This document shows positions 3,604 through 54,400 of a DNA stretch of 64,000 nt, one piece after another (within the stretch, counting starts at the first letter, position 1; each line of letters begins with the position of its first letter). The DNA is from Squalus acanthias (lineage: Eukaryota). Location: the NCBI GenBank assembly GCA_030390025.1, contig CM059432.1, forward strand, positions 58,530,001 through 58,594,000, in the 5' to 3' direction. The position numbers were made by a program, and so were the translations under genes. Under the pieces are notes generated by a model. The model ran no database searches. It was given only the letters and a program-made list of their open reading frames with translations, and was not told where the DNA came from.

Positions 3604-4175
3604 TGGAGATGCCGGCGTTGGACTGGGGTGGACAAAAATGAGAAGTCGCACAACACCAGGTTATAGTCCAACAGATTTATTTAATTTTACAAGCTTCAGC
3701 AGCCAGGGGCATTCAGCCTCGGATCTGCGGGTAAGCGTTCTCCAGGGCAGCCTTCGGGATACACGACAGCGCAAAATCATAGAGCAGAAACTGATAGCCA
3801 AGTTCCGCACTCATGAGGATGGCCTCAATTGCGATATCGGGTTCATGTCACGATACAGAATGTGACTTGACACTTCCCAGGTGTTTTTTTTTTTAAAAGA
3901 CTAGCACAAGAACCAACACAAATTGACAGGATATGCAGCCAGCAGGTGGTTTGACACGTTGGACCCCCTGGGACACATCTCATTGTCTTGGCTGTGCTCT
4001 TAGTGTGTCTTTGATGTAGGGAAATATTTGAATAGATTTTGTCTGTGTTTAAATTGTGAATTCTGGGAGATTCTCTCACTGCTAACTTACCTGAGGAAGG
4101 AGCGACAGCTCCGAAAGCTTGTAAAATTAAATAAATCTGTTGGACTATAACCTGGTGTTGTGCGACTTCTCATTT
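3604..4175 (+). mobile_element. Short Penelope-like element (3' end of GIY-YIG ORF plus pLTR) with inverted 5' arm
   Basis: 13-bp TSD CTCTCTCAAGATG (3591-3603 / 4176-4188); peptide GHSASDLRVSVLQ...RKIIEQKLIAKFRTHEDGLN; ~3636-3697 is the reverse complement of ~4114-4175. Confidence 0.9.
4087..4124 (+). ncRNA. Minimal type I hammerhead ribozyme in Penelope pLTR
   Basis: TTAC-CTGAGGA-A-GGAGC gaca GCTCC-GAAA-GCTT-GTAA: conserved core, stems I and II paired, palindromic stem III (AAGCTT). Confidence 0.8.
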
Positions 4176-7613: not shown

Positions 7614-7771
7614 CTAAGGATATGATACAGGCAATCACTATTGGTGTTACTATTAACATCCACACTATTTGCACGTTAGATATAAGTAATTTTAGGAGTG
7701 TGGTAGAGTTTATTGCATGCTACAAAATTATGCTGGGATGAAGTGACTGGTCAGTGTTATAAGACTGTGTT

Positions 7772-8300
7772 CTGTGATAACCCTGGGCTGTGCGGTAACC
7801 CCGGGCTGTGCGGTAACCCCGGGCTGTGCGGTAACCCCGGGCTGTGCGGTAACCCCGGGCTGTGCGGTAACCCCGGGCTGTGCGGTAACCCCGGGCTGTG
7901 CGGTAACCCCGGGCTGTGTGTTTATCCCGGGCTGTGCGGTAACCCCGGGCTGTGCGGTAACCCCGGGCTGTGCGGTAACCCCGGGCTGTGCGATAACCCC
8001 GGGCTGTGCGATAACCCCGGGCTGTGCGATAACCCCGGGCTGTGGGATAACCCCGGGCTGTGCGATAACCCCGAGCTGTGCGATAACCCTGGGCTGTGCG
8101 ATAACCCCGGGCTGTGCGGTAACCCCGGGCTGTGCGATAACCCCGGGCTGTGCGATAACCCCGGGCTGTGCGGTAACCCCGGGCTGTGCGGTAACCCCGG
8201 GCTGTGCGCTAACCCCGGGCTGTGCGGTAACCCCGGGCTGTGCGCTAACCCCGGGCTGAGCGGTAACCCCGGGCTGTGTGATAACCCTGGGCTCTGCGAT
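7772..8300. repeat. 18-bp CpG-rich minisatellite (CTGTGCGGTAACCCCGGG)n, ~29 units
   Basis: Directly visible tandem array with GGT/GAT/GCT variants. Confidence 0.97.
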
Positions 8301-15035: not shown

Positions 15036-16589
15036 CTCAGAGAGAGGTTCCTGTCCTTTACTCAGCATCTCCTTACAGTAATTAACTTCTGAAGAAATGA
15101 GACTCCACACTTGTAAACTTAAATTTTCAGGGCTAGAGAGGTTGTTTGGCAGTAATTATCAATTATCACGCCGTTAAAAATTCACTTACTCCTGAATGCA
15201 CCAGCCCTAACTTTTCTGGTGTCTTTAGTGGGGAACTAGTGGACAAGTACCCCAACTTCATGCCATTGCATGTCTTTCAATGCCGAGTCTATCAGCGAGG
15301 ACTGCAACAGCTCACCCTGTGGAAGAGCGGGGTAGCTTTGACAGCAACTTACAGGTTTCCACGTTAAACTGCGCATGTGCGAACGTCGGAAGTTGCTGTC
15401 TGACTTTTATCCTTAATAACGGTGAGCGCTGATAGCCTCACCATTACTCTCCACGCAAAATTTGGGGCATTGTCTTCCTAAAGGCAGCCGGTCTGCCATA
15501 TTGGATGCCTCTTTTTCTGCTTTCACCAATATGGCACTTCCAGCACATAATGAGCGTGCGCACCCTGCCCGCCATCTGGGCTGCTTAGGCGATCATTTTG
15601 CGCCTGAAAAACAAGCGCACTGCCATCGAATTTCTAAACTGTTGCATATAAAAGAAATACCTGCAATTCAATTTGAAAGCTTTTTACAATCCATAATTAG
15701 GGTCCAATACTAAACATTAATGTATTAATCTTGCAAGATTATGCAATCAATTCTTTGTATATACATCTATGTTGTTAACCAAACATGGCAATGTTTGTGG
15801 ACTGCAATGTTTTTTAACAGTGTTTTTGCATGATGAATGGCAAATCTGTTCAAAAATTGCTGTGGTCAAGGTAGAGTTTGTCAAAGTACAAAAATAATTT
15901 GCTGCTGGCATTCAAGCTACTTACAGAGCTGTGCTTTGATATTTCCTCTGTTGAAATATATAACACAGTAATTGTGATGTATGTCACAAAAGTGCTGGTC
16001 TGGGGTAGGGCATCAATAATTCATAATTAGAATAGTTGATAAGCTTCAATAATGATCTCTATGAAGCAAAATTTCAGTTGAATTGCTTATCACCAGAGTC
16101 CATTAAAGTGCACTCAGCTGGTTAGATAAAATGTGACCATTAAAAAACAGAAGAAACTTTAAATTGCAAAATCCAAATAAATATCAATGAAGAATGTCAG
16201 GCCTAGAAATTCGTTTCCATAGCGTCCGTTGTTTGGGTGCTACGGGTGCCGAATTGGAACCAAATTAGCTTCCGAACAGCGCGTGAACATTTCTGGTGTG
16301 GGCTGCACCGGACGCCATCTTGATGAGGGCAATAGGGTGGCCGTTAAGAGCGTGCGCTAGAAGTATGGTAAGTAGGCAGATCGTGATGTCAGTCAGTGTG
16401 CGACGCTGATTTGATGCCAGTGCTGCAATTTTCATTGTCATCGCTGGCGCTAACACCCTCACTTAACCTCACACAGCTGAGCATAGGTTCAGCAACAGGA
16501 AGGAACCCCCACCGGTATTTAAAGGGATCATCATCAACTTTCAGGTAACTTGCTTTTTGATTTCTACTGACTCTGAGTAAGTTCTTCCC

Positions 16590-16626
16590 AGTTCTGATGA
16601 AAGGTCATCGACCTGAAACGTCAACT
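16590..16626 (+). ncRNA. Minimal type I hammerhead ribozyme (5' pLTR)
   Basis: AGTT-CTGATGA-A-AGGTC atc GACCT-GAAA-CGTC-AACT; predicted GUC cleavage after 16622. Confidence 0.85.
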
Positions 16627-16761
16627 CTCTTTCTCTCTCCACGGATGCTGCCTGGCCTGCTGAGTTTTTCCAGCGTTTTCTGTTGTTATTTCGGATTTCC
16701 AGCATCTGCAGTATTTTGCTATCGTATTAGTGTTTGGTTCACTGCCACCTCTCTTCTTGGA

Positions 16762-19502
16762 ATGCCTACCTTGAAGAAGTTCTGCTCTTCTCTTCGACGG
16801 GATTTCCGTTTGGCTCTTCAACCTTGTTCATCTTCATTGATTTCAGTTTCCCTTCTCGTGTTTGATCAGGTATCTGCCAAGACTCGGTTTCACAGCCACA
16901 TTACTTTCCTCAGCAACTGTCTCCGGTTCCGACTTATCCCACGTGGATTCCAACTAAACTTCCACCCTTCGTGTTTCGGATCCACCCAGGATTACAAATA
17001 TCTCCAAGATATTCATCGTTCCTCGAACTACTGCTCTCGCCGCATCTTGAGATCCACGCTCAATGCCATGCGGCGCCACATGAACACTCTCGACATCTCT
17101 CTTCAGCAGCACCGACGCACTCTATCTCAAAGCTGTCCGGGTCCACAGTTCCATTTCATCCTTAGACTCATCCGACGCTTCAACAAAAAACTTTTCTTCT
17201 TCCTTTCCGATGTCAAGGATCGCAAGCTTCAACAACTCTTGGACACTAAAGCCCCTCCGGAACCTTCTTCCCCTTCACTTTCCTCTGACCCCCCTTCTCC
17301 CAATCTCACCCCCTGCCGCGTTTTCACTATCACCTCTGACCTTCCCCTCTCTGACTCCGAACGATCAGTCCTCAGCAAAGGCCTGAGCTTCATCCCCTTA
17401 CGCCCCCATCTCAATGAATTTCGAGCTCGGCACGATGCTGAGCTCTTTTTCCGCCGCCTCCGTCTCCGTGCCCACTTCTCTGGCCAGGAGTCTTCCCCCC
17501 GCACGGCTGACCCTTTCTCCCGCTTTCAGAATTCTCGTTCCACCTGGACCCCTCCCTCTGGCCTCTTGATCTTTTCATTGCTAACTGCCGCCGTGACATC
17601 GGCCAGCTCAATTTCTCTGCTCCCCTCACTCACTCCAACCTACCTCCCTCTGAACTTGCAGCACTCCATTCTCTCCGATCCAACCCTGACATTGTCATTA
17701 AACCTGCTGACAAGGGTGGCGCTGTTGTTGTTTGGCGAACCGACCTCTACCTAGCGGAAGTTGAACGCCAACTCTCTGACACCTCCTCCTACCTCCACCT
17801 GGACCATGACCCCACTACCGAACATCAAGCCACCGTGTCCAAGACTGTCACTGACCTCATCTCCTCTGGAGATCTTCCCCCCACGGCCGCCAACCTCATA
17901 GTTCCCCAACCCCGCACAGCCCGCTTCTACCTCCTTCCCAAGATCCACAAACAGGACTGCCCCGGTAGACCCATCGTTTCAGCCTGTTCTTGCCCCACGG
18001 AACTTATCTCTTCCTATCTCGACTCTATTTTTTCTCCCCTTGTCCAGTCTCTTCCCACCTACATCCGCGACTCTTCCGATGCCCTCCGCCATTTTAACAG
18101 TTTCCAGTTTCCCGGCCCCAACCGTCTCCTCTTCACTATGGACGTACAATCCCTCTACACCTCCATTCCCCACCAGGATGGCCTGAGGGCGCTCCGCTTC
18201 TTCCTTGAACAGAGGCCCAACCAGTCCCCATCCACCACCAGCCTCCTCCGCCTGGCTGAACTTGTTCTCACATTGAACAACTTCTCCTTTGACTCTACCC
18301 ATTTCCTCCAAATTAAAGGTGTTGCTATGGGTACCCGCATGGGTCCTAGCTATGCCTGCCTTTTCGTGGGATATGTGGAACACTCTTTGTTCCAGTCCTA
18401 CTCGGGTCCCCTCCCTCACCTCTTTTTCCGGTACATTGATGACTGTATCGGTGCCGTCTCCTGCTCTCGCCCTGAACTAGAACATTTCATTCACTATGCT
18501 TCCAATTTCCACCCTTCCCTCACCTTCACATGGTCCATCTCCGACTCTTCTCTTCCCTTCCTCGACTTCTCCATCTCCATCTCTGGGGATAGGTTATTGA
18601 CTAACATTCACTACAAGCCCACCGACTCCCACAGCTACCTGGACTACACTTCCTCCCACCCCGCCTCCTGTAAGGACTCTATTCCATTCTCCCAGTTTCT
18701 CCGTCTCCGCCGCATCTGCTCTGATGATGCCACCTTCCATACCAGTGCTTCCGACATGTCTTCCTTTTTCCTCAACCGAGGATTCCCCTCTACCGTGGTC
18801 GACACGGCCCTCGACCGTGTCCGTTCTATCTCCCGCACATCTGCCCTCACCCCTGCCCCTCCCTCCCGGAACCACGATAGGGTTCCCCTTGTCCTCACCT
18901 TTCACCCCACCAGCCTCCACATTCAACGGATCATCCTCCGCCATTTCCGCCACCTCCAGCGTGATCCCACCACCAAACACATCTTCCCCTCACCTCCCCT
19001 TTCAGCATTCCGCAGGGACCGCTCCCTCCGCGACACCCTAGTCCACTCCTCTACCACCCCCAGCACCCCTTCCCCTTCGCCCGGCACCTTCCCGTGCACG
19101 CGCAGGAGATGCAACACATGCCCTTATACCTCCCCTCTTCCCACTGTCCAGGGCCCCAAACACCCCTTCCAGCTGAAACAGCGATTTACTTGTACTTCCT
19201 GCAATTTAGTATACTGTATTCGCTGCTCACGATGTGGACTCCTCTACATTGGGGAGACCAAACGCAGATTGGGTGACCGCTTTGCGGAACACCTCCGTTC
19301 AGTCCGTAAGGGGGACCCCGAGCTCCCGGTGGCCTGTCACTTTAATTCACCGCTTCACTCCCACTCTGACCTCACCGTCCTCGGCCTAATACATTGTTCC
19401 ACGGAAGCTCAGCGTAAGCTCGAGGAACAGCACCTCATCTTTCGTTTAGGCACGCTACAGCCCTCTGGACTCAATATCGAGTTCAACAATTTTAGATCAT
19501 AA
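16762..19502 (+). pseudogene. Penelope reverse transcriptase / GIY-YIG endonuclease ORF with a single frameshift (~17565)
   Basis: KPADKG, LPKIHK..PGRPIVS, MDVQSLYTSI, GVAMGT, RYIDD, Cys linker CTRRRCNTC, LVYCIRC..CGLLYIGETKR; both halves otherwise open. Confidence 0.95.
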
Positions 19503-20638: not shown

Positions 20639-20805
20639 CAATGTTCCCTCTAAATTTTCTTTGTTTATTTCTATGTGCAGCACCTTTAAATTTGCTGTGC
20701 AGCCGCTCATGCGGAATCTTAGAGGGAACAGCTTGTGAGCGGCCTGCGCGGTACCTTCCAGATTGCTGTGTGGCCGCCCACGCACGCAGCTTAGAGGGAA
20801 CATTG
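20639..20805. mobile_element. hAT-type MITE (167 bp)
   Basis: Perfect 15-bp TIR CAATGTTCCCTCTAA; 8-bp TSD CCTGAGAG (20631-38 / 20806-13). Confidence 0.93.
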
Positions 20806-20813
20806 CCTGAGAG

Positions 20814-23800
20814 CACTCCGGACTCTCAGGTCCCACCCTAACATTGTCATTCAACCTGCTGACAAGGGTGGCGCTGTTGTAGTTTGGCGAACGGACCTCT
20901 ACCTTGCTGAGGCTGAATGCCAACTCTTCGACACCTCCTCCTACCTCCCCCTGGACCACAACCCCACCACCGAGCATCAAGCCTTCGTTTCCCAGACCAT
21001 CACTGACATCAACTCCTCTGGAGATCTTCCCCCCACAGGCTTCAAACTCATAGTCCCCCAACTCCGCACAGCCCCAAGATCCACAAACAGGACTGCCCTG
21101 GTGGACCCATCATTTCGGCCTGTTCTTGTCCCATGGAACTTATTTCTTCCTATCTCAACTCAATTTTTTCTTCCCTTGTCCAGTCTCTTCCGCACTACAT
21201 CCACGACTCTTCCGACACCCTTCCACTTTAACAGTTTCCAGTTTCCTGGCCCTAACCGTCTCCTTTTCACTATGGACGTCCAGTCCCTCTAGACCTCCAT
21301 CCTCCACCAGAATGTCTGCGAGCCCTCCGCTTCTTCCTTGAACGGAGGCTCAATCAGTCGCCTTCCACCACCACCCTCCTCCGCCTGGCTGAACTTGTTC
21401 TCACATTGAACAACTTCTCCTTTGACTCCACTCACTTCCTCCAAATAAACGGTGTTGCTATGAGAACCCATATGGATCCTAGCTATGCCTGCCTTTTTGT
21501 GGGATACGTGGAACATTCTTTGTTCCAGTCCTACACAGGTCCCTCCCTCACCTCTTTCTCCGGTACATTGATGACTGTATAAGTGCCGCTTCCTGCTCTC
21601 ACCCCAAACTGGGAAGTTTCATCAACTTTGCTTCCAATTTCCACCCTTCCCTCGCCCTCACCTGGTCCATCTCCGACTCTTCCCTTCCCTTCCTCGACTT
21701 CTCTATCTCCATTTCCGGGGAAAGGCTATCCACCAATATCTACTATAAGCCCACTCCCACCCACAGCTACCTTGATTACACTTCCTCGCATCACACTTCC
21801 TCTAAGGACTCTATTCCATTTTCCCAGTTTCTCCACCTTTGTCACATCTGTTTTGACAATGCCACCTTCCTCACCAGTGCTTCCAATATGTCTTCCTTTT
21901 TCTTCAAATGAGGATTCCCCTCTACCATGATTGACAGGGCTCTCGATCCTGTCCGTCCCAGTTCTGCCCTCACCCTTTCCCCTTCCCCACAGCCTTCACA
22001 TTCAATGGATAATCCTCCGCCATTTCCTCCACCTCCAACATGATCCCACCACCAAACACATCTTTCCCTCCCCTTCTCTTTCAGCATTCTGAAGGAACTG
22101 TTCTCTTCATGACACCCTGGTTCACTCCTCAATCACCCCGAACACCCACTCCCCTTCCCATGGCACCTTCCCATACAAGCGCAGGAGATGTACACCTGCC
22201 CTTTTATCTCCTCCCTTCCCACCGTCCAGGGCCCCAAACACTCCTTCCAGGTGAAACAGCAATTTACTTGTACTTCTTTCAATTTAGTACTGTATACTAT
22301 ATTCGCTGCTCATGATGCGGTCTCCTCTACATTGGGGAGACCAAACGCAGATTGAGTGACCGCTTTGTGGAACACCTCCGTTCAGTCCGCAAGCGTGACC
22401 CTGAGCTTCTGGTCGCCTGTCACTTTAATTCTCCGCTCCACTCCCACTCTGATCTCTCCGTCCTCGGCCTTCTACACTGTTCCAACGAAGTTCAACGTAA
22501 GCTCAAGGAACAGTGTAGGGGGTGATGGTTTGTGTCAGCTTCACCTCTGACTTCTGAGCGGTTCGAATCGCACCCACTCCCTTGGTTCTAGACCTTGGAC
22601 TTATTTGGGGGTTGTGACAAAAGGTGCAGCAGACAACTGAGTTTGGTGAAAAGAACTTCAATCTTTATTAAAAAAGGTAAGACACAAATAATAACACTTA
22701 TAATTACTCTAAAGGTGGGGAACACTTCGGTACAAGCGAGGGAAATGACAGTAGAACAATACTTCACCCCTCCCAACCCCACTTTACTAGCTAAGTTAGG
22801 CTTTGAAGGACCAGGGATAATGCTCACCAATCCTTTGACAGTTGGGCTAAATCGCAGTTTTGGGGTTCGCTGTTTATGGCGGTTCGTGTCTGCCGTACCC
22901 CATACGCGACAGAGGACTTCACCTGCGTATCTGGTCAGTCTTCGTGAGTCTGCTGATGCGGTAGGATGTCGTTTTGGATTTATCTGGTGAGTACCCAATT
23001 TCTTTTGGTTAGCAGTAGGGTTTAGAGTCTTTGGGAAAATCTTACCCAGGGATAAGTCAGGAGTAGATTGTAGAGTGGAAACTTTGCGGTTCTTTGGGTT
23101 TTCTTCCCTTGAGTTGGTCTTTGTTGGTCGCGGTGGCCTGCTATTACCCAGTCCGTTGGGGGTAATATGCGGTTGTTGGTTTCTTGAGGCCTTTGATTTC
23201 TGCAATGGTTTTAGGCCTTGTCTAGTGTGTCGGTCGTGGAGCCATCGGTGACTTGTTGCTGCTTGTTCCTCCGGGTGACTGTGTTGGGACCGTTGTTGGA
23301 GGTCCGTCGAGGTGGTATCTTCACGAGCTGGACTCAGGTGTGTCTGAGTGGTGAGCGATGCCGACTCGCTTCCAGCTCGGCTTGTCCTCTTCCTGGTTTC
23401 TTCTTCTGATGACCATTCACCTTGAACTGCTTAACGGGCCTTCAATTATACGGAATTGAAGTGGCCTTATCTACCTGCCAAATCTACTCAGTTCATTGTC
23501 TGGTTTTGGCGGGCTCGTTAATCGGTAACGACTTACTAGCATGTTAACTGGTTTTTTAACAGGCCTTCAATCTCACCCATTGAACATGGCCTTATCTACC
23601 CGCCAAATCTGCTCAGTTCATTGTCTGATTTTGGCGGGCCTGTTACCAGTAACTGCTCTGTAAGTGTCAAATGGCTTTTGGGATGGCTTGCATCCTGTCG
23701 ATCTCCTTGGTTGATCACTGGTGATTGATTTTGTGTTTTGGGTTTCTAGGCTGGACTCGGTTTTTCTATAGAATGGTCCTGAGTGGGTTTGTATTATGCA

Positions 23801-24513: not shown

Positions 24514-25716
24514 TGGCCCCAATATTAGCTTGGAGGTGGGGAGGGAGCAGGGGTGGGGGGCTGCTGGTGTCCGGTCGGTCCTTCAGGTCCTGTTGAATTT
24601 AATGGCAGGACCTGATTAACATTTCTTGTCTATGTTTTCCAGCCGCAGTCAGTCAGATTGAGAAGCCACAGCTGGAGAGCGGAGAGGAGGGAGAGAGGGA
24701 TCAGAAAGCCGGAAGGAGGGGAGATCAAAGGCCTGTAGGGGAGATCGGAAGCGTCAGGGAGAAGATCGGAAGGTTGGGGGGATATTGGAAGGTCCAGGGA
24801 GCAGATCGACAGGGATGGGGGGGTCAGAAGGGTCGGGGGGAGATTGGAAAGGTTGTGGGGAGGGGGAGATCAGTACGGTCGGGGAGATTGGCAGGGTCGG
24901 AAGGGGAGATCAGTAGGGTCGGGGGGTGATTGAAAGCCGCAGCCGGGAAGTGCAGAGGAGGGAGAGAGGGAATCGGAAAGTCTAGTGGGAGAGGTGGGAG
25001 ATCGTGGCTCGGGGGGCAAGTCCAGTTGCGGGGGGCTGGCAGAAGTGGGTAAGCTGGACCCAGCAGTCCTTGCTTCCCTTTAGCTGCTGGGTTTCCCGAT
25101 GTCTACATGTCTGGCTTTTCCCGCGATATCCGACCCCTCCCGCCCTGTCCGACCCCTTCCCCCCCCGTCCGACCCCTCCCCCCCCGTCCGACCCTCCCCC
25201 CCCGTCCGACCCCTCCCCCGCCCTGTCCGACCCCTCCCCCCCCGACCCTGCCCCCCCGTCCGACCCCTCCCCCGCCCTGTCCGACCCCTCCCCCGCCCTG
25301 TCCGACCCCTCCCCCGCCCTGTCCGACCCCTCCCCGCCATGTCCGACCCCTCCCCCGCCCTGTCCGACCCCTCCCCCACCCTGTCCGACCATCCCCCGCC
25401 CTGTCAGACCCCTCCCCCGCCCTGTCCGACCCCTCCCCCGCCCTGTCCGACCCCTCCCCCGCCCTGTCCGACCCCTCCCCCACCCTGTCCGACCCCTCCC
25501 CCGCCCTGTCCGACCCCTCCCCCGCCCTGTCTGACCCTCCCCCGCCCTGTCCGACCCCTCCCCCGCCCTGTCTGACCCCTCCCCCGCCCTGTCTGACCCC
25601 TCCCCCGCAATGCCCGACCTCTCCCTGCGATGATTTTAAAGATGTTCTACTGTCGAATTCGGCAGGACATGTGGGAAACCCTTACTTTGGGTTGCCCATC
25701 CGAAAATCTTCACCCC
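24514..25716. mobile_element. Probable Harbinger-type non-autonomous element with G-rich and C-rich repeat arms
   Basis: GG-start / CC-end weak TIRs (GGCCCCAATATT / AATCTTCACCCC); G-rich arm 24680-25040 followed by C-rich arm. Confidence 0.5.
25128..25620. repeat. 21-bp C-rich minisatellite (CCCTGTCCGACCCCTCCCCCG)n
   Basis: Directly visible; G-run rich on the minus strand. Confidence 0.96.
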
Positions 25717-43238: not shown

Positions 43239-46200
43239 CCATGCTGATGTAATAGATGGCAGGTCAAGTAGAGATCAGAGGAGCAATCTGTCAATGTTGT
43301 GATAGTTACTTGCAATGTGGTGAGAGCAGCTTACAAGGTTGCAGAAAAGACTTTCAAACTCTAGACACCTAAATCTGTGCTCAAAATGGAGTCAGCAAGA
43401 GCCTTTCGCATAGGCAAGTAAGCAGGTGCCAAGTGGAAGTATTTATTGGCATTTCCATGCTGTGCATTAATGACATTGATCAATGGCCACTTCCGCCTCA
43501 GCTTGACAGACGTAGGGCTGGATTTCCCAAGCCCCGAGGAGGCGGGCATGGAGGCGGGACAGCCCGTAAAATCGGAGAAAGTGGGGGCGGATGGCAAACC
43601 CGCCCATCCCGCCTCCGTGCCCACTTGCCAGGAGGCGGGAAGATGTGCAGCTTCGGGTCCCGTCTCCTGGAGGCGGGAAAGGAATTTAATCCTTTTAACT
43701 GCCTGTTAACAGGTAGTTAACAGGCAGAAAAAAGGATTAGTGCCATTTTACCATCACAGGTGAAGGCTTCCCGACCTCGGAGAACCCCGCCGGGTTGGAG
43801 GAGACGTGGAGAAGGTCTGCGGTGGTTGGAGGCACCTGGAAATAAGGTGTAGAGGTGAGTGATGGGTGCAAGTGTGGAGTGGTAAGTATGCAAGGTGAGT
43901 GATTAGTTTAAAAAAGTGTTCACTTACCTTTTTCTCCTTCTATAGCCTTTAGCCGCGCTGGATTGGGAGAGAGGACATCCACCTTGTCAATTTCAGGTAA
44001 TGGCTGATGGACCCTCCGATCCATCAGACATCGGAAATTTACTTATTTTCAATGTTTGTTGAGTCCTCACCACAAAGACTCATCAAACTAAAGAGAATGT
44101 CGGTGTTTGACAGCTTCACAGAGCTGTCAGACGGTGTCATTTCTTCTTTCAAGAAGCATAGAAGCATAGAAGATAGGAGCAGGAGTAGGCCGTTCGGCCC
44201 CTCGAGCCTGCTCCGCCATTTAATGAGATCACGGCTGATCATCCAAATTCAGTACCCTGTCCCTGCTTTCTCTCCATATCCCTTGATCCCTTTAGCCTTA
44301 AGAAATATATCTATCTCCTTCTTGAATATATTTAATGAATTGGCCTCAAGTGCCTTCTGTGGTAGAGAATTCCACAGGTTCACCACTCTCTGGGTGAAGA
44401 AATTCCTCCTCATCTCAGTCCTAAATGGCTTATCCCTTATCCTTAGACTGTGACCCCTGGTTCTAGACTCCACCGCCATCGGGAACATCCTTCCTGCATC
44501 TAGTTTGTCTAGTCCTGTTAGAATTTTTTAAGTTTCAATGAGATCCCCTCTCATTCTTCAAAACTCTAGCGAATACAAGCCCAATCGTCCCAATCTCTCT
44601 TCATACGTCATTCCTGCCATCCCAGGTATCAGTCTGGTGAATCTTCGCTGCACTCCCTCCATGGCAAGAACATCCTTCCTCAGATAAGGCGACCAAAACT
44701 GCACACAATACTCAAGGTGTGGTCTCACCAAGGCCTTGTACAACTGCAGCAAGACATCCTTGCTCCTATACTTGAATCCTCTCGCTATGAAGGCCAACAT
44801 ACCATTTGCCTTCTTAACTGCCTGCTGCACCTGCATGCTTACCTTCAGTGACTGGTGCACAAGGACTCCCAGATCTCGTTGCACTTCCCCTTTTCCAATC
44901 TATTGCCGTTCAGATAATAATCTGTCTTCCTGTTTTTGCCACCAAAGTGGATAACCTCGCATTTATCCACATTATACTGCATCTGCCATGCATCTGCCCA
45001 ATCACCCAACCTGCCCAAATCATACTAGAGTTTCTCAGCATCCTCCTCACAGCACACACGCCCACCCAGCTTTGTGTCATCTGCAAACTTAGAGATATTA
45101 CATCTAGTTCCCTCGTCTAGATCATTAATATATATTGTGAATAGCTGGGGTCCTAGCACCGATCCCTGTGGTACCCCACTAGTCACTGCCTGCCACTCGG
45201 AAAAAGACCCGTTTATTCCAACTCTTTGCTTCCTGTCTGCCAACCAGTTCTCTATCCAAGTCAGTACCTCACCCCCAATCCCATGTGCTTTAACTTTGCA
45301 CACTAATCTCTTATGCGGGACCTTATCGAAAGCCTTCTGAAAGTCCAAATACACCACATCCACTGTTTCTCTCTTATCTATTCTACCAGTTATATCCTCA
45401 AAAAATTCCAGTAGATTAGTCAGGCATGATTTCCCTTTTGTAAATCCATGTTGACTTTGTCCGATCCTATCATTGTTTTCCAAGTGCTCTGCTATTACAT
45501 CTTTTATAATGGACTCTAGCATTTTGCCCACTACCGATGTCAGGCTTACCGGTCTATAATTCCTCGTTTTTTCTCTACCACCTTTTTTAAATAGTGGGGT
45601 TACATTAGCTACCCTCCAATCCATGGGAACTGTTCCAGAGTCTATAGAATTTTGGAAGATGACCAGCAATGCATCTATTATTTCTAGGGCCACTTCCTTA
45701 AGTACCCTAGGATGTAGATTATCAGGCCCTGGGGATTTATCGGCCTTCAATCCCACCAATTTCCCTAACACCATTTCCCTACAAATAGTGATTTCATTCA
45801 ATTCCTCCCTCTCATTAGACCCTATGTTCCCCGACATCTGTGGGAGTTTATTTGTGTCCTCCTTTGTGAAGACAGAACCAAAGTATGTATTTAATTCGTC
45901 AGCCACTTCTTTGTTCCCCATTATAAATTCCCCTGATTCTGACTGCAAGGGACCTACGCTTGACTTCACCAATCTTTTTCTCTTCACATATCTATAGAAG
46001 CTTTTACAGTCAGTTTTTATGTTCCCTGAAAGCTTACTCTCATATTCTATTTTCCCCCTCTTCGTCCTCCTTTGCTGAATCCTAAACTGCTCCCAATCCT
46101 CAGGTTTGCTGCTTTTTCTGGCCAATTTATATGTCCTCTCCTTGGATCTTATGCTATCCCTAATTTCCCTTGTTAGCCACGGTTGAGTCACCTTTTTTGT

Positions 46201-46425
46201 TTTATTTTTATGCCAAACAGGGATGAACAAATTCTGTAGTTCATCCATGCGATCTTTAAATGTTTGCCATTGCCTATCCACCGTCAACCCTTTAAGTAAC
46301 GTTCCCCAATCCACCCTAGCCAACTCGCGCCTCATACCATCGTAGTTTCCTTTATTTAAATTCAGGACCCTAGTCTCTGAGTCAACTACTTCACTCTCCA
46401 TCTTAATGAAGAATTCTATTATATT

Positions 46426-47169
46426 GGGCCGAAAATTGATCCCGGGACGCGAGAGTACGCACTGCATACTCTCGCGTATTCCCACTCCAATTGCCGGTTT
46501 TCTGCATGCCCTGCGCATGCGCTGAAAACCGGCAATTGCTCTTCCGAAAAGGGGGGGGGGCCTGGCTGCATCGCGTGCGCGCTACAGGCTGCGCGCACGC
46601 TGTGCACTTCATGCTTTGGACGCGCAGGTAAGTAGGGAAGATTTTGGAAATGTAAAAAGGAGGAGTAAGACCCGCTTTTAAGAAGGTAAGTAGTGAATTA
46701 AGTATTTTTTTGATTTTTTTTTTACAGGTATATCTTTTTTATAGACTTTAAAGACAGGTAAGTTTATTTTTATAACTTTTTAAAAGATTTTAAATTTTTT
46801 CAAAAATTTAATTTTTTATTTAAAATGGTTAATTTAATTAACTATACTTATTTTATTAATGTGATGGTTTTTTTTTTAAATTTAATTGAGGTTTAGCTGT
46901 TATTTTGGGGGGGTGTAAGATTCATAAGTCTTACAGCCATGCTGTGAGACTTATGAATGGAAGATGGTGTGCTGCCATTGGCTCTAACTGAGTCACGTGA
47001 TCCCACAGCTCGCACGAATTAACTACGCCGCTGGGATACGCAAGCCCAGCACAGCTGATGTCTGGAACATCAATTTCGTGCGAGCTGGATCAGAAAAAGC
47101 ATAAGCGAGGTGAGACATCGCGGGGAAGGCTTACCCCCGCGGGAACAGAGCAAGATCAATTTCTGGGCC
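46426..47169. mobile_element. Harbinger-type MITE M5
   Basis: TIRs GGGCCGAAAATT / AATTTCTGGGCC; TSD ATT; interrupts CR1 ORF2. Confidence 0.94.
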
Positions 47170-48165
47170 ATTATGATCGCTCCTCCCCAGGGGCCTCGCA
47201 CAACAAGATTGTAATTAATCCTTTCTGATTACATAATACCCAGTCTAAGATGGCCTGATCTCTAGTTGGTTCCTCGACATATTGGTCCAGGAAACCATCC
47301 CGTATACACTCTAGGAATTCCTCCTCCACAGTATTGTTACTAATTTGGTTAGCCCAATCTATATGTAGATTAAAGTCACCCATGATAACTGCTGTGTCCT
47401 TATTGCACGCATCTCTAATTTCCCATTTAATGCCATCCCCAACCTCAGCATTACTGTTTGGGGGTCTGTATACAACTCCCACTAATGTTTTCTGCCCCTT
47501 GGTATTTCTCAGCTCCACCCATACAGATTCCACATCATCAGAGCTAATATCCTTTCTTACTATTGTGTTAATCTCTTTAACCAGCAATGCTACCCCACCT
47601 CCTTTTCCTTTTTGTCTGTCCTTCCTGAATATTGAATACCCCTGGATGTTGAATTCCCAGCCTTGATCACCCTGGAGCCATGTCTCCGTAATCCCAATTA
47701 TATCATATCCGTTTACATCTATTTGCGCAGCTAATTTATCCACCTTATTACGAATGCTCCTCGCATTAAGACACAATGCCTTCAGGCTTGTTTTTTTAAC
47801 ACTCTTAGGGGGAAAAATTAGGTCGCGCCCCGTTTGGGGAGCAGATATCGTCTGGACGCAAAAATTAGCGCCTGGCGCTAATTATCGCCACTGACTGGAA
47901 ACTTCACTTTTACCGCCCCGGGAGGTGAGTGGAGCGCTAAATCAGGCGCTGCACACCTGTCTTAAGGCGCAAAGGCTGAGCAGTGAGGCACTAACTCAGC
48001 GCGCGAGTGCAGCGCAGGTGCTGCCAGTTAGCGAGGGAACACAGACACACTGGCACCGGCCAGTTCTTAAAGGGCGGGGGCCAACTTGCTCCCCAGCCAC
48101 ACCCTGCTCATTGCAGCCTTGAATCTCGGCCTGGAGAGACCTGTGAATCCATTTTGCAGCCAAGG

Positions 48166-49997
48166 ATGGAGAGGGTGAGAGAACGAGCTCAGCGCTTCAC
48201 CGAGCGGGCCTTGGATGCTCTGGTTGGCGCGGTGGAGCGCAGAAGATCTATACTCTTCCCTGAGAGTGGCAGGAGGCCTTTGCCACGCGAGTACAGAAGA
48301 GTGTGGAGGGAGGTGGCTCAGAGCGTCTCCTCCAGGAGAATGGTGCCCAGGACCCATGTTCAATGCCGCAAAAAGTTCAACGACCTCACTCGGGTCGTCA
48401 GGGTGAGTGGCTTTTTCTCAATACCTCTCCATCCCTCCATCTCAACCTCACTCTATGGCCAGAGGGTCTTAAAACCCCAATGCACAACACTCATCCAACA
48501 CCTATGGCCCTTTCATGAAACACACACACACATTCCACACTTTGCATACAGTAAGGGCTATTCACCTATGGGAGGCACATCAGGCAAGACCATGGCTGTA
48601 TATTTACTCAGATGCTGTCCTTTTTCTTGCAGGCCAAGCTGGCGCATAATAGGAGACAGCAGCAACGGACAGGTGGAGGGCGGCCTCAGCTGCAACCCCT
48701 CAGCGATCTTGAGGAGCGCGTCCACAGGATTGTGGCAAGCCGGGTGATCGGTCCCGTCGCCACTGGAGACGCCGACCCCGTTCTGGACAGCAATGGTAAG
48801 GTCATCACCTTTTTGTCCTCTGTCCTTCCGCTTGTCCCTCACAACACCAGCCTTTGACACTTTCAATCCAACTTGCTAACTCGCTGCACTTATTCCTCCC
48901 TTACTGCCACCCTGTCCTCACGCTAAAGCCACTCTTGTACCTCCCTGCTTTCAGATGGTGATTCACCAGCTGAGGAGACGGGCCCTGAAGCTGCCAGTGG
49001 GAGTGAAGCTGCAGCCGAGGAGGAAGAGGAAGCCGGAGCATCAGTGCCACCCTCTCCCGAGGAAGCCCATGCCCACACTGGGAACACGCCTTCCCTAGAG
49101 GGGAGCAGGGGGGAAGGGTCTGATGAGGGTGAAGCTCCAGGACCCAGCGGGCTGCAGCAACGCCATGGGGGTAGGGAAGAACGGGGGCCTTCTCCCCAGC
49201 GGGAGAGTATGCCAGCGACTCCTACTGCAATGGACGCAGAGGAGGAGCGGCTGATCGCAGAAATGAACACCCAGGCGGTGGGCATGCACACTGAGCTCAT
49301 GGGTGCAGTGGGAAGGGTGCCCGAATGCATTGAGTCACTGGCAAGGAGTGTGGAGCACTTCGCTGTAGCACAGGCGGATGCCACACTAAAGCTTAGAGCT
49401 GCAATTCAGTCACTGACTGCCGTGATCCCATCTCTGACTGCTCTCATGCAGACTCAGATTGAGGCCACGCGAGCACTGTCTGCTGCCAACCTCGATGGTT
49501 CGTTCACATGTCCCCGGGGCTGTCACCGCGCCGCAGCAGGCCAGCAATCTGTGCTCCAGCAGATTGCTCCAGATGCTGAAGTGCTGCCCCGTGGGAGTGC
49601 CAGTGTGTCGGGCGAGCAGGGAGTTGCTGTCCTCTCTCACGATGACAGCATTCCTGCTGCCAACACTGTCACTTCTCCACTGCACTTGCCACCGCCTGTA
49701 GGACAGACTGCTGCCGCCCATGCAGAGTTGGTGCAGTCTGCAGCCGGGCCCTCCAGTCCCAGAACTGGTCGAGGTGTCCTTCAGGGGCATCTGCAGTGTC
49801 AGGGTCTGACAATCAGCAGCCTTCCACCAGCCTTGCTGCAGCCACTGAGGTCCCATTACGGAGGAGCAGTAGGGTTAGAAGGGGGGAAGTGCGCAAGGGA
49901 AGGAGATCACCCTCGAAGGGCAAAAAGTAGGAGGTGTGACAAAATGCTGGTCATTTTTTTATTAAAGGCCGAGGTTCGTGGTTCAACTTTTGTTTAG
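48166..49997 (+). CDS. Harbinger Myb/SANT-like protein, exons 48166-48402, 48633-48795, 48955-49997 (480 aa as read; probable 1-bp deletion near 49775 alters the C-terminus)
   Basis: All GT-AG sites intact and phase-compatible (0, 1); RAQRFTERALDALV...WREVA...QCRKKFNDL. Confidence 0.9.
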
Positions 49998-50242
49998 TGT
50001 TTTGGACATTATCTCCAGGTTGTGAGAACCAGTTATGTTAATGACTGTTTTTTTGTGTTTATTTCTATGAGTTTGTCATGAGGAAATGACACACACAGAG
50101 TTTGTAAAATAAATAAGTTTTTGTATTCAAAATATACATGTTTGGTGTTTGGAATCATTGGTGCCTTGGCCGGCTTAGGGGTTGCGTGCTGGGTTCATTG
50201 ATGTTGTTAGCAATGGCAGAAGCCATTTCCACAGCAGGGGCC

Positions 50243-51403
50243 CTAGAAGCGGCTTGCTATCAGCCGTTGACGGACGGCCCTTGCAGTTTCACCATTGTGG
50301 GCCGCCCTCCCGCCTTGGTGCTGCTGATGATCATCCTCCTCGTCCTCTTCCTCCTCTTCCTCCTCCTCCTCTGGTGGTGCTCCAAGGCCTGGTGGCATTG
50401 GCTGGGTCCTGACGATTGCCATGTTATGCAACATGCAGCACACAACTACGAAGTTGGATACTCGCTCAGGCGAGTACTGCAGGGCTCCTCCAGAATGGTC
50501 GAGACAGCGGAACCGTTGCTTCAGCACGCCGATTGTGCGCTCAATGATGTTCCTGGTAGCTTGATGGCTCTCGTTGTACCGCAGCTCAGCAGGGGTGTTG
50601 GGCGTACGGAGCGGTGTCATCAGCCAGGTGCACAATGGATACCCCTTGTCCCCGAGAAGCCAACCAACTGGCTGATGCGGTGCCTCGAAAAGTTCTGCCA
50701 CAGTAGTCTGGCGCAGGATGAAAGCATCGTGGCAGCTGCCAGGATAGTGGGCATTGACAGCGAGTATCAGCTGTCTGTGGTCACAGACCAACTGAACATT
50801 CAAGGAATGGAACCCCTTTCTGTTCCGGAAATCCTCGGCATTCTCATGTGGAGCACGCAAAGCCACATGCGTGCAGTCAATGGCGCCCTGCACCATGGGG
50901 AAGCCCGCTATCCTCGCAAAGCCCAGAGCGCGGTCACGCTGCTTGTCTAGGGTCATGGGGAAAGAGATGAACTCTCGTCTCCTTTTAAAGAGGGCATTTG
51001 TGACCTGCCGGTTGCAGCAATGCACCGCGAACTGGGAGATATTGGCGAGGTCCCCAGCAGCAGCTTGAAATGAGCCAGTAGCATAGAAGTTGAGAGCCAC
51101 TGTGACCTTCACTGCCACCGACAGAGACGTCCTGGACCTCAGTTGAGGCTGCAGATCTGGCTGCAGCAGGTGGCAGAGCTCAGTGACCACCTCCTTGCTG
51201 AATCGCAGCCTTCGCAAACACAGCTCCTCAGACATATGAATGTAGGAGAGCTGTTCACGATATACCCTGGGAGGGTAAGCTCTCCTGTACAGATGCCTGT
51301 TGGCCCTCCTCCGTCTGGCCATCATTGCCACTCTCTCTCTGCGTCTCTGTGTCCTCCGATTCAGCTGGAGCAGGACGACACCCCCATTCAGTGCAGCCCC
51401 CAT
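50243..51403 (-). CDS. HARBI1-like DDE transposase, intact, 386 aa
   Basis: Uninterrupted ORF with GAIDCTH, LLGDKGY and RNIIERTIG catalytic motifs; acidic C-terminal tail. Confidence 0.96.
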   Translation of the reverse strand: MGAALNGGVVLLQLNRRTQRRRERVAMMARRRRANRHLYRRAYPPRVYREQLSYIHMSEELCLRRLRFSKEVVTELCHLLQPDLQPQLRSRTSLSVAVKVTVALNFYATGSFQAAAGDLANISQFAVHCCNRQVTNALFKRRREFISFPMTLDKQRDRALGFARIAGFPMVQGAIDCTHVALRAPHENAEDFRNRKGFHSLNVQLVCDHRQLILAVNAHYPGSCHDAFILRQTTVAELFEAPHQPVGWLLGDKGYPLCTWLMTPLRTPNTPAELRYNESHQATRNIIERTIGVLKQRFRCLDHSGGALQYSPERVSNFVVVCCMLHNMAIVRTQPMPPGLGAPPEEEEEEEEEDEEDDHQQHQGGRAAHNGETARAVRQRLIASRF

Positions 51404-54400
51404 AGTCTCTTTGCAAGCAAAGTTATGAAGGACAGCAACCAAAGTACCAGCGAAGTTAGGATCAGTAGGCAAAACTACCTCACAAAGCGTTGACTCAATG
51501 CAGAAGTCTCTCTTTCTCTCTCTCCGAATCTCTCTCTCTCTCTCAGAACGAGTGGTGCAAAAATGTCAACCACAGAAAAAGACAGGAAGAGGCCCCCTTT
51601 AAATAGCGCCCCCCCCCAGCCCCACAGCGATTGATAGCGTTCCAGTCTTCCGGTCGTTGGATGCGCCAGGTGGTAAGGCAGGGGGCGCCACTCAATTTCC
51701 GCTCCGGGGCGCCACAAGGGCGTTGCACCATGGAATGACGTCACAATCTGCGCGCGCAGGTGGTCGCGGCGGTAAAGTTTAGCACCGCCACACAATGTCT
51801 AGTTAAGTTCCCGAGCGGCGCAAACATCGCTGCGCCCGGGCGCTAGCGGCTTTGCGCCCCATTAGCGCCCTCTTAAGGCGCTAACGGGAGGCGCAACCAA
51901 CTGAATTTTTCCCCCTTAGTCCTTTTAGAATTATTATTTACTGTAGCCCTGTTTGATTTACACCCTTGATTTCTCTGCCTTCCACTTTTGCCTTTTCTCC
52001 TTCCTGTCATTTGCTTCTATCCTTGCTTCCCTTTCCTCTGTTTCCCTGCACAGGTTCCCAACCCCCTGCCACTTTAGTTTAAACCCTCCCCAACAGCACT
52101 AGCAAACACTCCCCCTAGGACATCGGTCCCGGTCCTGCCCAGGTGCAAACCGTCCAGTTTGTACTGGTCCCACCTCCCCCAGAACCGGTTCCAATGTCCC
52201 AGGAATTTGAATCCCTCCCCCTTGCTGGTAAGGAAGTCTTGACAGATAGCACGTCTGATGTTGACATGATCTGTCAGTGACTTCTTCCCTAATTGGCTTG
52301 CTGAGCCCGCAGGGCGGGCTTAACAAGCTCAATCAGGGGAAAATCCCTCTGAATGGTCAGGCGAGGATGGAGGCGGGACATTGATACGACAAGCAGCAGT
52401 CCCGCCTCTAACTCGCCTCCATTCACAAAATCCAGACCGTAGTTTCCGAGCTGCATGATTCCCGTGGTCATCCAGTGAAATGCAAAAGGTCTGATTAAAA
52501 TCCCTGTTAAAGGTCTCACAACAAGGATTTAAAGAGCTTAATTAGCTCGCCCGCCTCTGCCGTTCGGATCTGTGGCGCGCTGGCAAACATACCCGAGTTA
52601 AAGGCGCGAGGAGGCAGAATGACAGCGTGTTCCCAACGCGCTCCCATTTTCTGCAACTCTTACTGCTGACCCGCCTCCAAACCCACACACACGGCAGTGG
52701 GACAATTCCGGCCAACATCTCAGTGCTGCAGTGGAAGCTCAGACTGCTGCCATCATGGTTGGGTTTACGAGTGTGGAAAGGGGCTTGCAGGGTCTCACAG
52801 CACTTCAGCAATCTGTCCCCCAACAGATGCATAGGATTGCTGAGACACCTCCCCGGGGGAGTGGCAGTGGCTCCGTGGAGCAAGAACCTGCTGTCCTCTC
52901 TCAGGATGACTGCATTCGTACTCCCAACACTGCCACTCTGCCAGTGCCCTTGCTGCTGCCTATCATCCAGCCAGCCCAGACTGCTGCCACCCATGCCAAG
53001 ATGGTGCAGTGTACAGCTGGGCCTTCTAGGGCCAGAGCTGCTTGAGGTCGTCCTGCAAGGCCATCTGTAGTCTCCCCCACTGAAAGTCAGCAGCTGTCCA
53101 CCAGCCATGCTGCAGCCATTGTGGAGCACTAGAGTAGGAGCACTAGAGTTGGAAAAGGAACACTAAAGACAGACAATATGGGAATGCACAAAGGTGATTA
53201 GTTGATGTTGTTGTTTTGATAAATTTATAAATTATGTTTGAAATGTTTGTTTTGTGATGACTCTCATTTCAGCTTGATGTCCAGGAGGACACTGTGATGT
53301 TCCATGACAGAGGGATGGTACGGTGGGGAAGGGTTAAGCAATGGGGCTCTGGGGTTTCATTCATTGGAACCGGAGTCTGATGAGGCGCTCACAGACAGCC
53401 CGTCCTCCCTTCCTTCTCCTCATCCTCCTCTTCTTCCTGCTCCTCTGCTTCCTCCTCCTCTTCTTCCTCCTCCTCCTGAAGTGTTCCCGGAACCCATGGT
53501 GGCAAGGGCTGTGCCCTCATGATGGCCAAGTTGTGGAGGATGCAGCAGACCACCATGAAATGGGACACCCACTCCAGTGAGTACTAGAGGGCTCCTCCCG
53601 AGCGGCCAAGGCCGTGGAACCATTGCTTGAGCACCCCAATTGCTCGATAAGGTTCCTCGTGGCAGCATGGCTCTGATTATATGAGTGCTGGCCACTAGTG
53701 GTGGGGTTGTGGAGGGGAGTCATCAGCCAGGTATAGAGCAGATAGCCTTTGTCTCTGAGAAGCCACCCTCAGGGTTTATGTGGTGGCTGGAAGATTGCTG
53801 GCACACCGGACTGACGCAGGATGAAGGCATGACTGCTTCCAGGATAGCGGGCATTCACCATCATGATGCGTTGGGCATGGTCACACAACAACTGCACATT
53901 AAGTGAGTGGTAGACTTTGCAGTTATGGAACATCTCAGGATTGTTATGCGGTGCCCACAGAGCCACGTGTGTGCAATCGATGGTGCCCTGCACCATGGGT
54001 AACATGGGTAAGCCCGATATTCTGACAAAGCCACAAGCGCGCTCCTCCTGCTTTTCTCTGTTTAGAGAGAAGACAATGAAGTCCCTTCTCATGGAATACA
54101 GAGCCTCTGTGACCTCCCGGGTGCAGCGATGGACGGCGAACTGAGAGATTTTAGCTATGTCTCCTGCTCCAGACTGGAAGGATCCGCTGGTGAAAATATT
54201 GTGGGGCACGGTGACCTTGAGGGTCACTGGCAGCGCCGTCATTGCCCTGCTCTGAGGCTGCAGGTCTGGTTACAGGAGGTGGCAGAGTTCTGTGTCCACC
54301 TCCTTGGTGAAGCAGAGCCTTCTAATATACTGCTCCTGGCTTAAATACAGGTAGGAGAAGTGCTCTCGGAAGACCCCAGGTGGGTAAGGCCTCCTGCTGA

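Follow-up and report, generated by a model that had tools for sequence, protein, structure and literature searches.

The window (the whole 64,000-nucleotide stretch of DNA that was analysed) contains a 4,108 bp Harbinger transposon (element proper 47808-51915) with convergent Myb-like and transposase genes, flanked on both sides by TTA TSDs and interrupting a LINE whose motifs suggest the CR1 type (Table 1). The first-pass annotation had delimited the element as 47805..51918, a span that includes both TSDs, and this is borne out by TTA copies at 47805-47807 and 51916-51918.

Table 1. Positions of the Harbinger element, its genes and its host LINE in the window
Feature	Position	Strand	Basis
Host CR1-type LINE, interrupted by the Harbinger and a 744-bp sibling insertion	44150..52230 (outer limits approximate)	-	Pfam RVT_1, Exo_endo_phos
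CR1-type LINE, RT	45025-46400	-	Pfam RVT_1
CR1-type LINE, endonuclease	47171-47804	-	Pfam Exo_endo_phos
Left TSD, TTA, preceded by C	47805..47807	+	Sequence; empty-site joints
Left TIR, 12 bp perfect (14/16 extended)	47808..47819	+	Sequence comparison of ends
Left subterminal region, likely Myb promoter/5'UTR (putative promoter role)	47820..48165	+	Motif positions, run depth
Myb-like exon 1, 79 codons, Myb/SANT domain	48166..48402	+	Pfam, GT donor
Myb-like exon 2	48633..48795	+	Splice sites, similarity to Myb-like relatives, X13 contig break at 48795
Myb-like exon 3	48955..49930	+	Family-frame stop 49928-49930; frame as read here extends to 49997
1-base deletion, private to this copy or assembly error	49774..49776 (49774/5)	+	Run comparison, alignment with five older window segments
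Transposase ORF, 386 aa, no stop, DDE triad D176/D252/E288	50243..51403	-	ORF reading, Pfam, motifs
Transposase 5' region: CT-rich repeat (51509-51548) and right subterminal repeats	51404..51903	-	Sequence motifs
Right TIR, 12 bp perfect	51904..51915	-	Sequence comparison; 6 X13 contigs leaving at 51915
Right TSD, TTA, followed by G	51916..51918	+	Sequence

Boundaries, host site and genes

The TIRs had been described as perfect, which is true over 12 bp only; identity is 14/16 when they are extended, followed by gapped similarity. A short TIR alone is weak evidence for a boundary: Markov simulation (100 rounds) yields 0.1 such TIR plus TSD matches per 12 kb, and the whole repeat-rich 64-kb window contains 12. 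The boundaries are firmer than the TIR allows because empty-site joints that skip 4,111 bases were found in all four aligned public runs (X1, X2, X11 and X13), and six X13 contigs depart from the stretch exactly at 51915. Among the X1 and X2 pieces listed, none bridges an element junction, and one of these two runs may be the source sample. The reading frame of the LINE is continuous across the reconstructed empty site, and the element itself showed no sign of an insertion nested in it. The claim that this is the innermost and most recent insertion of the stack holds for its first half; "most recent" was rejected, as the sibling insertion at 46426-47169 (ATT TSD) shares the CR1 and the same depth and is equally innermost. 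Four other transposase-like remnants lie within the same 64-kb window.

The left subterminal region carries short repeats of the GCGC(C/T)A type that are common to the right end. It is also present in deeper-covered derivatives that consist of the ends only, and X13 depth is higher at both ends.

Pfam analysis assigned the transposase to DDE_Tnp_4 (PF13359, E = 7.5e-40), and the triad was placed by motifs. The reading frame is open and stop-free with its triad present, as first annotated, and features an Asn at residue 131 that is private to this copy: of the 113 relatives aligned, 92 have Ile here, as does the majority form of the family. Residue 152 is likewise a private change, while residue 258 is less clear. 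Judged from sequence, nothing examined points to a disabling effect of N131. The exact transposase sequence is absent from a collection of 15 billion proteins, and a sequence search of the PDB returned chance-level matches only (six, at E 0.038-0.95). Among the 120 relatives listed, 111 are named from sharks or rays, with a best identity of 67%, and a transposase tree (built without named Nuwa or PIF reference proteins) places the protein in an elasmobranch clade.

The first Myb-like exon matches Myb_DNA-bind_5 (PF13873, E = 3.9e-10) and PF13837 (E = 4.1e-6), and the two introns (230 and 159 nt) both run from GT to AG. Two weak searches returned one match for exon 1 and, with part of exon 3, no match among 6,589 candidates.

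Condition and age of the copy

The predicted three-exon Myb gene with intact splice sites was correct as to the exons and the GT..AG introns, whereas the gene itself is not intact, since exon 3 has a 1-base deletion. Public contigs carry the missing base in all four aligned runs, where it accounts for 51.7 of 51.7 in X13, 23.6 of 23.6 in X11, and 0.88 and 0.99 of the depth in X1 and X2, respectively. All five older segments of the window that were aligned also show a base in the deletion column, and one of them has its own gap nearby. The resulting frameshift at codon 407 of 458 replaces a conserved basic C-terminus. Of 70 Myb-like relatives, one (P0125) resembles the family-frame tail at its own extreme C-terminus (50% over 38 aa, E = 3e-4), and none resembles the tail that is read in this copy. 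The family sequence as such is well conserved, its majority form keeping the Myb frame open in all four aligned runs. The frameshift falls in the last exon, leaving 406 of 458 residues and with them the Myb domain unaffected, and the replacement tail retains a basic patch (8 K/R in 20 aa versus 10), so the frameshifted protein might still work. An assembly error could account for the deletion; the difference from the majority at 49774/5 is a substitution plus a deletion and lies outside a homopolymer.

Base-level comparison covered four of the 23 listed public runs, and the others, among them those of organisms C, D and F and of B-DNA, were compared by word share; X19 and X20, with small shares, were excluded. 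At no fewer than 17 positions (35 rows are listed inside the element), another letter accounts for at least 85% of the depth in both X1 and X2, and the floor of the difference between this copy and the majority is 0.41%. Long contigs differ from the copy at 32 of 2,199 bases (1.5%) in X11 and 26 of 1,310 (2.0%) in X13. The copy probably differs from the family majority by about 1.5%, part of which may be a subfamily or species difference; differences in individual X11 pieces span 1/325 to 10/212. At the epaulette shark mutation rate given in the available text of PMC10587355 (7e-10 per base per generation), 0.4% corresponds to roughly 3-29 million generations and 1.5% to 11-107 million across the confidence interval of the rate, which is that of another species and may not fit CpG-rich repeats. 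The burst behind this copy would thus be old in years (millions of generations) and small in sequence divergence.

The CpG observed/expected ratio of the element is 0.56; the window as a whole has 0.47, and the repeats next to the element have 0.29-0.42. The abundance of CpGs noted earlier is thus a modest excess, as values of 0.68-0.78 are attained in four of the window's 2-kb bins. In slowly mutating sharks, an open frame or the retention of CpGs says little about how young a copy is. With a frameshift, amino-acid changes absent from the majority and a divergence of about 0.4-1.5% in a slowly mutating lineage, the description of the element as a young, essentially complete and candidate active copy lacks support. 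Rare variants are lost from contigs, and young sister copies that are nearly identical would therefore escape notice.

Spread of the family and alternative readings

The family is high-copy. On a 5.3 kb reference that includes the CR1 flanks, themselves multi-copy, 50,757 contigs were placed in X1 and 79,626 in X2, about 22% of them at 99% identity or better; summed contig depth was not taken as copy number. Internal-deletion joints were found, showing that the family has deletion derivatives. Runs under six organism labels (A-F) carry 0.53-0.81 of the element's words; for organism F, one sample gave 0.53 and two gave 0.00. Along with the element, X11 (organism E) and X13 (organism B) also contain its empty site and the CR1 flank family. 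A domesticated Harbinger gene (HARBI1, NAIF1 or MSANTD) was rejected, as TIRs and a TSD are present and contigs number in the tens of thousands.

The reading that we favour, and consider probable, is that a full-length member of a high-copy, two-gene Harbinger family (PHIS, NuwaII-like) inserted into a CR1 LINE of what is likely a shark genome, and that this copy was later frameshifted and otherwise changed. It is likely to be decaying and no longer self-sufficient, because the Myb frameshift and further changes are absent from relatives. By analogy with Harbinger3_DR and Ping/Pong, the spliced Myb-like protein would bind the ends and carry the DDE transposase into the nucleus, where the transposase would excise the element and insert it at a palindromic target centred on C-TNA-G, giving a 3-bp duplication. 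The ends and catalytic triad are kept, so this copy might be movable in trans if intact copies persist.

An unlikely extension is that this copy is damaged and the family remains active through other intact, expressed copies, which could move it in trans. The open Myb frame of the majority in all four aligned runs is in keeping with this, as are seven runs of organisms A and B that carry 0.52-0.55 of the words and may, by guess, be RNA, although no run with the element is recorded as RNA. In X13, the one of these seven that was aligned, one contig leaves exactly at the exon-2 donor (48795) and another starts at 48954, the last base common to the intron-2 acceptor and the exon-2 end; both breaks would follow from use of these splice sites. 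Intact, expressed Harbingers also persist after a burst in sea kraits, according to the portion of PMC8437027 available. Against this, no exon-exon joint is present among the 15 of 116 X13 joints listed, X13 covers intron 1 like the exons, and its status as RNA is a guess. The depth peak at the ends fits read-through of non-autonomous derivatives, and the presence of about half or more of the words under six labels fits a burst that predates their split, if these are related species. We regard a naturally active two-gene shark Harbinger, whose intact spliced copies elsewhere would still jump into the palindromic C-TNA-G-centred target, as unlikely.

It is highly improbable that the copy is intact and young, as first proposed, with the indel an assembly error. 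A single indel, an open transposase frame, canonical splice sites and a CpG ratio above that of neighbouring repeats would all suit such a copy, but the combined substitution and deletion outside a homopolymer at 49774/5 would not, and at least 16 other near-fixed differences are distributed across the element. Recent horizontal transfer, or spread between species, has the least in its favour and was rejected: the word shares under labels A-F and a sea krait Harbinger so acquired (PMC8437027, in part) are outweighed by a transposase that nests among shark and ray proteins, by the CR1 flank family and empty site that accompany the element in X11 and X13 (as related genomes or carried-over host DNA would show), and by the uneven shares in organism F.

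Comparison with known Harbinger systems

This copy belongs to the autonomous-type two-gene class to which it was first assigned, having a DDE_Tnp_4 transposase, a Myb/SANT gene, TIRs and a TTA TSD. The PHIS superfamily is characterised by a 3-bp TSD (TWA in the classical group) and TIRs that are mostly shorter than 60 bp and usually begin with A or G; the element features a DDE_Tnp_4 domain with its triad, a Myb/SANT gene, a TTA TSD and a 12-bp TIR starting with G. The available text of PMC4482050 (Han et al. 2015) describes the NuwaII group as having a C-TNA-G target, GG-starting TIRs of 13-46 bp and a mean length of about 4.7 kb. Our element resembles this group in its C-TTA-G target, GG-starting TIRs, DDE transposase with Myb/SANT ORF and length (4.1 kb versus about 4.7 kb), whereas its perfect TIR is 12 bp (14/16 extended) and the 12 species listed for the group in that text include no cartilaginous fish. 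C-TTA-G was read at this one site, and one X11 contig shares the G after TTA before leaving. The sequence fits a NuwaII type of PHIS/Harbinger, with the reservation that one target site was seen and that TTA fits the classical PIF/Harbinger TWA rule too. Intactness of both ORFs marks a potentially active autonomous copy in that part of PMC4482050; here the transposase ORF is intact and the Myb-like ORF, frameshifted at codon 407, is not.

The closest proteins are shark and ray "putative nuclease HARBI1" entries (e.g. P0001, Pristiophorus japonicus), the two best of which share 61-67% identity and the same clade. These labels are automatic names, whereas the sequence here is enclosed by TIRs and a TSD and occurs in many copies, which makes it a transposase rather than a domesticated HARBI1. 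In the accessible section of PMC9179366, Harbingers were not found in the elephant shark and other cartilaginous fish were said to need checking, and in the grey reef shark no DNA transposons are commoner than Tourist/Harbinger repeats, according to the portion of PMC12498223 available. The present family joins many others in a shark-type genome rich in Harbingers, and is a small addition to the former remark. Literature searches in open-access text listed no paper centred on a Harbinger family from sharks, and the family may already be catalogued.

Mobility of intact copies would matter more, since the vertebrate Harbinger that moved in cells is a reconstruction: Harbinger3_DR from zebrafish (Sinzelle et al. 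2008), which moved in human cells as related in the available parts of PMC2836001, PMC3016246 and PMC9392472. Going by those texts, it shares the two-protein design, and the empty site here agrees with its palindromic target consensus at 9 of 12 flanking positions, whereas its TSD is CWG rather than TTA; the systems were compared by description and target site. Were the shark family active, it would offer a native vertebrate Harbinger that has a target preference and could serve for gene transfer as a two-component system, and the present copy would be a passenger movable in trans. Harbinger-Snek of sea kraits, as described in the accessible text of PMC8437027, is likewise a vertebrate Harbinger present in high copy number, some copies being full-length and others defective or derivative. 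It differs in its horizontal transfer, its RNA reads and its counted intact copies (269 in one species, 1 in another), whereas descent of the shark element looks vertical within sharks and rays.

Boundaries and coding content of the element

The Harbinger element described in the first-pass annotation (47805..51918) lies between two TTA triplets, both included in that interval, which bears out the reported TTA target site duplication (TSD). Its terminal inverted repeats (TIRs), described as perfect, are identical only over 12 bp, match at 14/16 positions and show gapped similarity beyond. On its own, a TIR this short beside a TSD makes weak boundary evidence: 100 Markov simulations yielded 0.1 such pairs per 12 kb, and the repeat-rich window contains 12. 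Nevertheless, the boundaries are secure despite the weak TIR, because the LINE's reading frame becomes continuous once the element and one TTA are taken out, joints skipping 4,111 bases were present in all four public runs compared (X1, X2, X11 and X13, from 23 listed), and six X13 contigs depart from the element sequence exactly at 51915.

Features of the element and the surrounding window (window coordinates)
Feature	Position	Strand	Details
Element proper	47808-51915		4,108 bp
Transposase ORF	51403-50243	minus	386 aa, stop-free; DDE_Tnp_4, E 7.5e-40
Myb gene exons	48166-48402, 48633-48795, 48955 onward	plus	Convergent with transposase ORF
Second insertion in same LINE	46426-47169		744 bp, non-coding; ATT duplication, 16-bp TIRs (14/16)
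Relatives of the 744-bp insertion	~5.8-6.6, 8.4-9.2, 9.7-10.4, 12.2-12.8 kb		
Older broken Harbinger copies and deletion derivatives	2.1-5.8, 38.3-43.3, 52.7-54.9, 13-15, 29.7-31.5 kb		Different families
Insertion inside Myb gene of older Harbinger	3636-4175		~540 bp, 61-bp perfect inverted ends
Older Harbinger Myb gene	~41.68 kb		Apparent frame change of its own, a few bases from the site equivalent to 49775
Penelope-like elements (RT and GIY-YIG)	16561-19502, 20800-22500		First with 663-aa open frame
Tandem arrays (18-bp-type unit; C/G-skewed unit)	7750-8300, 25000-25700		Produce long spurious ORFs

The transposase is intact, as annotated, and carries the catalytic triad motifs D176, D252 and E288. 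The three Myb exons and their splice sites were also recovered (introns of 230 and 159 nt, both GT-AG), with a Myb/SANT domain in exon 1 (E 3.9e-10). Splice-site use in the family is hinted at, not proven, by X13 (organism B), the only run compared that was guessed to be RNA. One contig exits exactly at the exon-2 donor (48795) into unrelated sequence and may represent a Myb-gene transcript fused to host or other DNA; another starts at 48954, the point at which spliced and unspliced paths would converge. No exon-exon joint was present among the 15 of 116 X13 joints displayed, and intron 1 is also covered in this run. Joints going back ~54 bases at 48543-48600 in intron 1 were present in 4/4 runs and may reflect a short tandem duplication in many copies of the family.

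A frameshift in the Myb gene

The Myb gene looks intact, since splicing it as read gives 480 aa without a premature stop. Its reading frame, however, is not: alignment with five older Harbinger segments from the window revealed a one-base gap near 49775, where all five have a base, although one is itself gapped close by and two run into unrelated sequence just upstream of this column. The extra base was present in public contigs from all four runs compared, accounting for the full depth in X13 and X11 and for 0.88 and 0.99 of it in X1 and X2. The family frame is 458 aa long and is broken in this copy at codon 407. Its basic tail aligns with the extreme C-terminus of one Myb-like relative out of 70 (P0125, E 3e-4), whereas the tail as read matches none of them; by eye, three more of 11 printed C-termini have a similar motif. 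The change spares the Myb domain and the middle region, and the new tail keeps a basic patch. An assembly error could still account for the gap, though the site differs from the majority by a substitution plus a deletion and lies outside a homopolymer. With the Myb gene frameshifted, this copy lacks the two intact ORFs by which potentially active copies are defined, and the description of it as essentially complete and candidate-active is not supported.

Divergence and family

The copy had also been called young. Among the 35 difference rows displayed within the element, 17 are near-fixed, the other letter taking at least 85% of the depth in each of the deep runs (X1 and X2), which gives a private divergence of at least 0.41% (279 further difference rows lie beyond the 35). 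Within the element, the longest contigs show 32 differences in 2,199 bases (X11, organism E) and 26 in 1,310 (X13), and the fractions of element words present in runs (0.53-0.62) correspond to 1.5-2% divergence if coverage is complete. At transposase position 131 the copy has Asn, against Ile in most of the family and in 92 of 113 aligned relatives. For the epaulette shark, the rate of mutation is given as 7e-10 per base per generation (CI 1.4-14.1e-10; PMC10587355), at which 0.4% equals ~3-29 million generations and 1.5% equals 11-107 million. The rate is another species' and the ages are rough, but they give no hint of recent transposition. The CpG excess is modest: observed/expected is 0.56 in the element, 0.47 in the window and 0.29-0.42 in adjacent repeats, making the element younger than its neighbours but not exceptional.

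The family is high copy: the two deep runs place 50,757 and 79,626 contigs on 5.3 kb that includes the LINE flanks, of which 11,069 and 18,175 reach at least 99%, although contig depth is not copy number. Internal-deletion joints and higher end depth in X13 are signs of non-autonomous derivatives, and recurrent loose contig ends of related subfamilies. Half or more of the element's words were found in 18 runs labelled with six organisms and in one further run without a label. For organism F, one sample had 0.53 of the words and two others from the same study had 0.00 (X12, X22 and X23), most simply read as carry-over or mislabelling. We consider native activity of the family elsewhere in the genome improbable.

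By name, 111 of the best 120 of 427 transposase relatives are from sharks or rays; the best among the matches listed (67%) is a Pristiophorus japonicus protein. In a tree of 31 listed relatives and two window proteins, the transposase shares a starred seven-row clade with Pristiophorus, Narcine and Mobula, itself nested in a group made up entirely of elasmobranchs. These relatives and this placement make a shark host likely, and nothing points to horizontal transfer.

Genomic setting and known Harbinger systems

The element interrupts a LINE with endonuclease and RT domains, which we take from its motifs to be a CR1. Although it is the innermost insertion, it need not be the most recent, since the same LINE carries the 744-bp insertion, which has internal palindromes. 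Among PHIS elements, the Pangu group has a described ANT target. The LINE itself is decayed: without both insertions, its longest open runs reach 480 and 244 codons and lie in different frames. The window contains four other transposase-like remnants, two at ~56-68% identity over most of the protein, and its several older, broken Harbinger copies and derivatives make it a graveyard of such elements. Overall, the annotated observation was confirmed in part, and its interpretation found partial support.

What is directly seen of the mechanism is the two genes, the ends, the TSD, the frameshift and the divergence. By analogy with published accounts of Harbinger3_DR and Ping/Pong, both proteins would be needed for transposition (PMC2836001, PMC9392472, PMC9179366), with the Myb-like protein binding the element ends and importing the transposase, which would perform cut-and-paste. 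The element belongs to the PHIS/Harbinger superfamily on every feature tested. Its empty site matches 9/12 flanking positions of the target consensus in the description of Harbinger3_DR (PMC3016246), and its C|TTA|G target and GG-starting TIRs fit the NuwaII group as outlined in PMC4482050, making it probably NuwaII-like. For the grey reef shark, Tourist/Harbinger repeats have been reported (PMC12498223), and intact, expressed copies have already been described among the high-copy Harbingers of sea kraits (PMC8437027).
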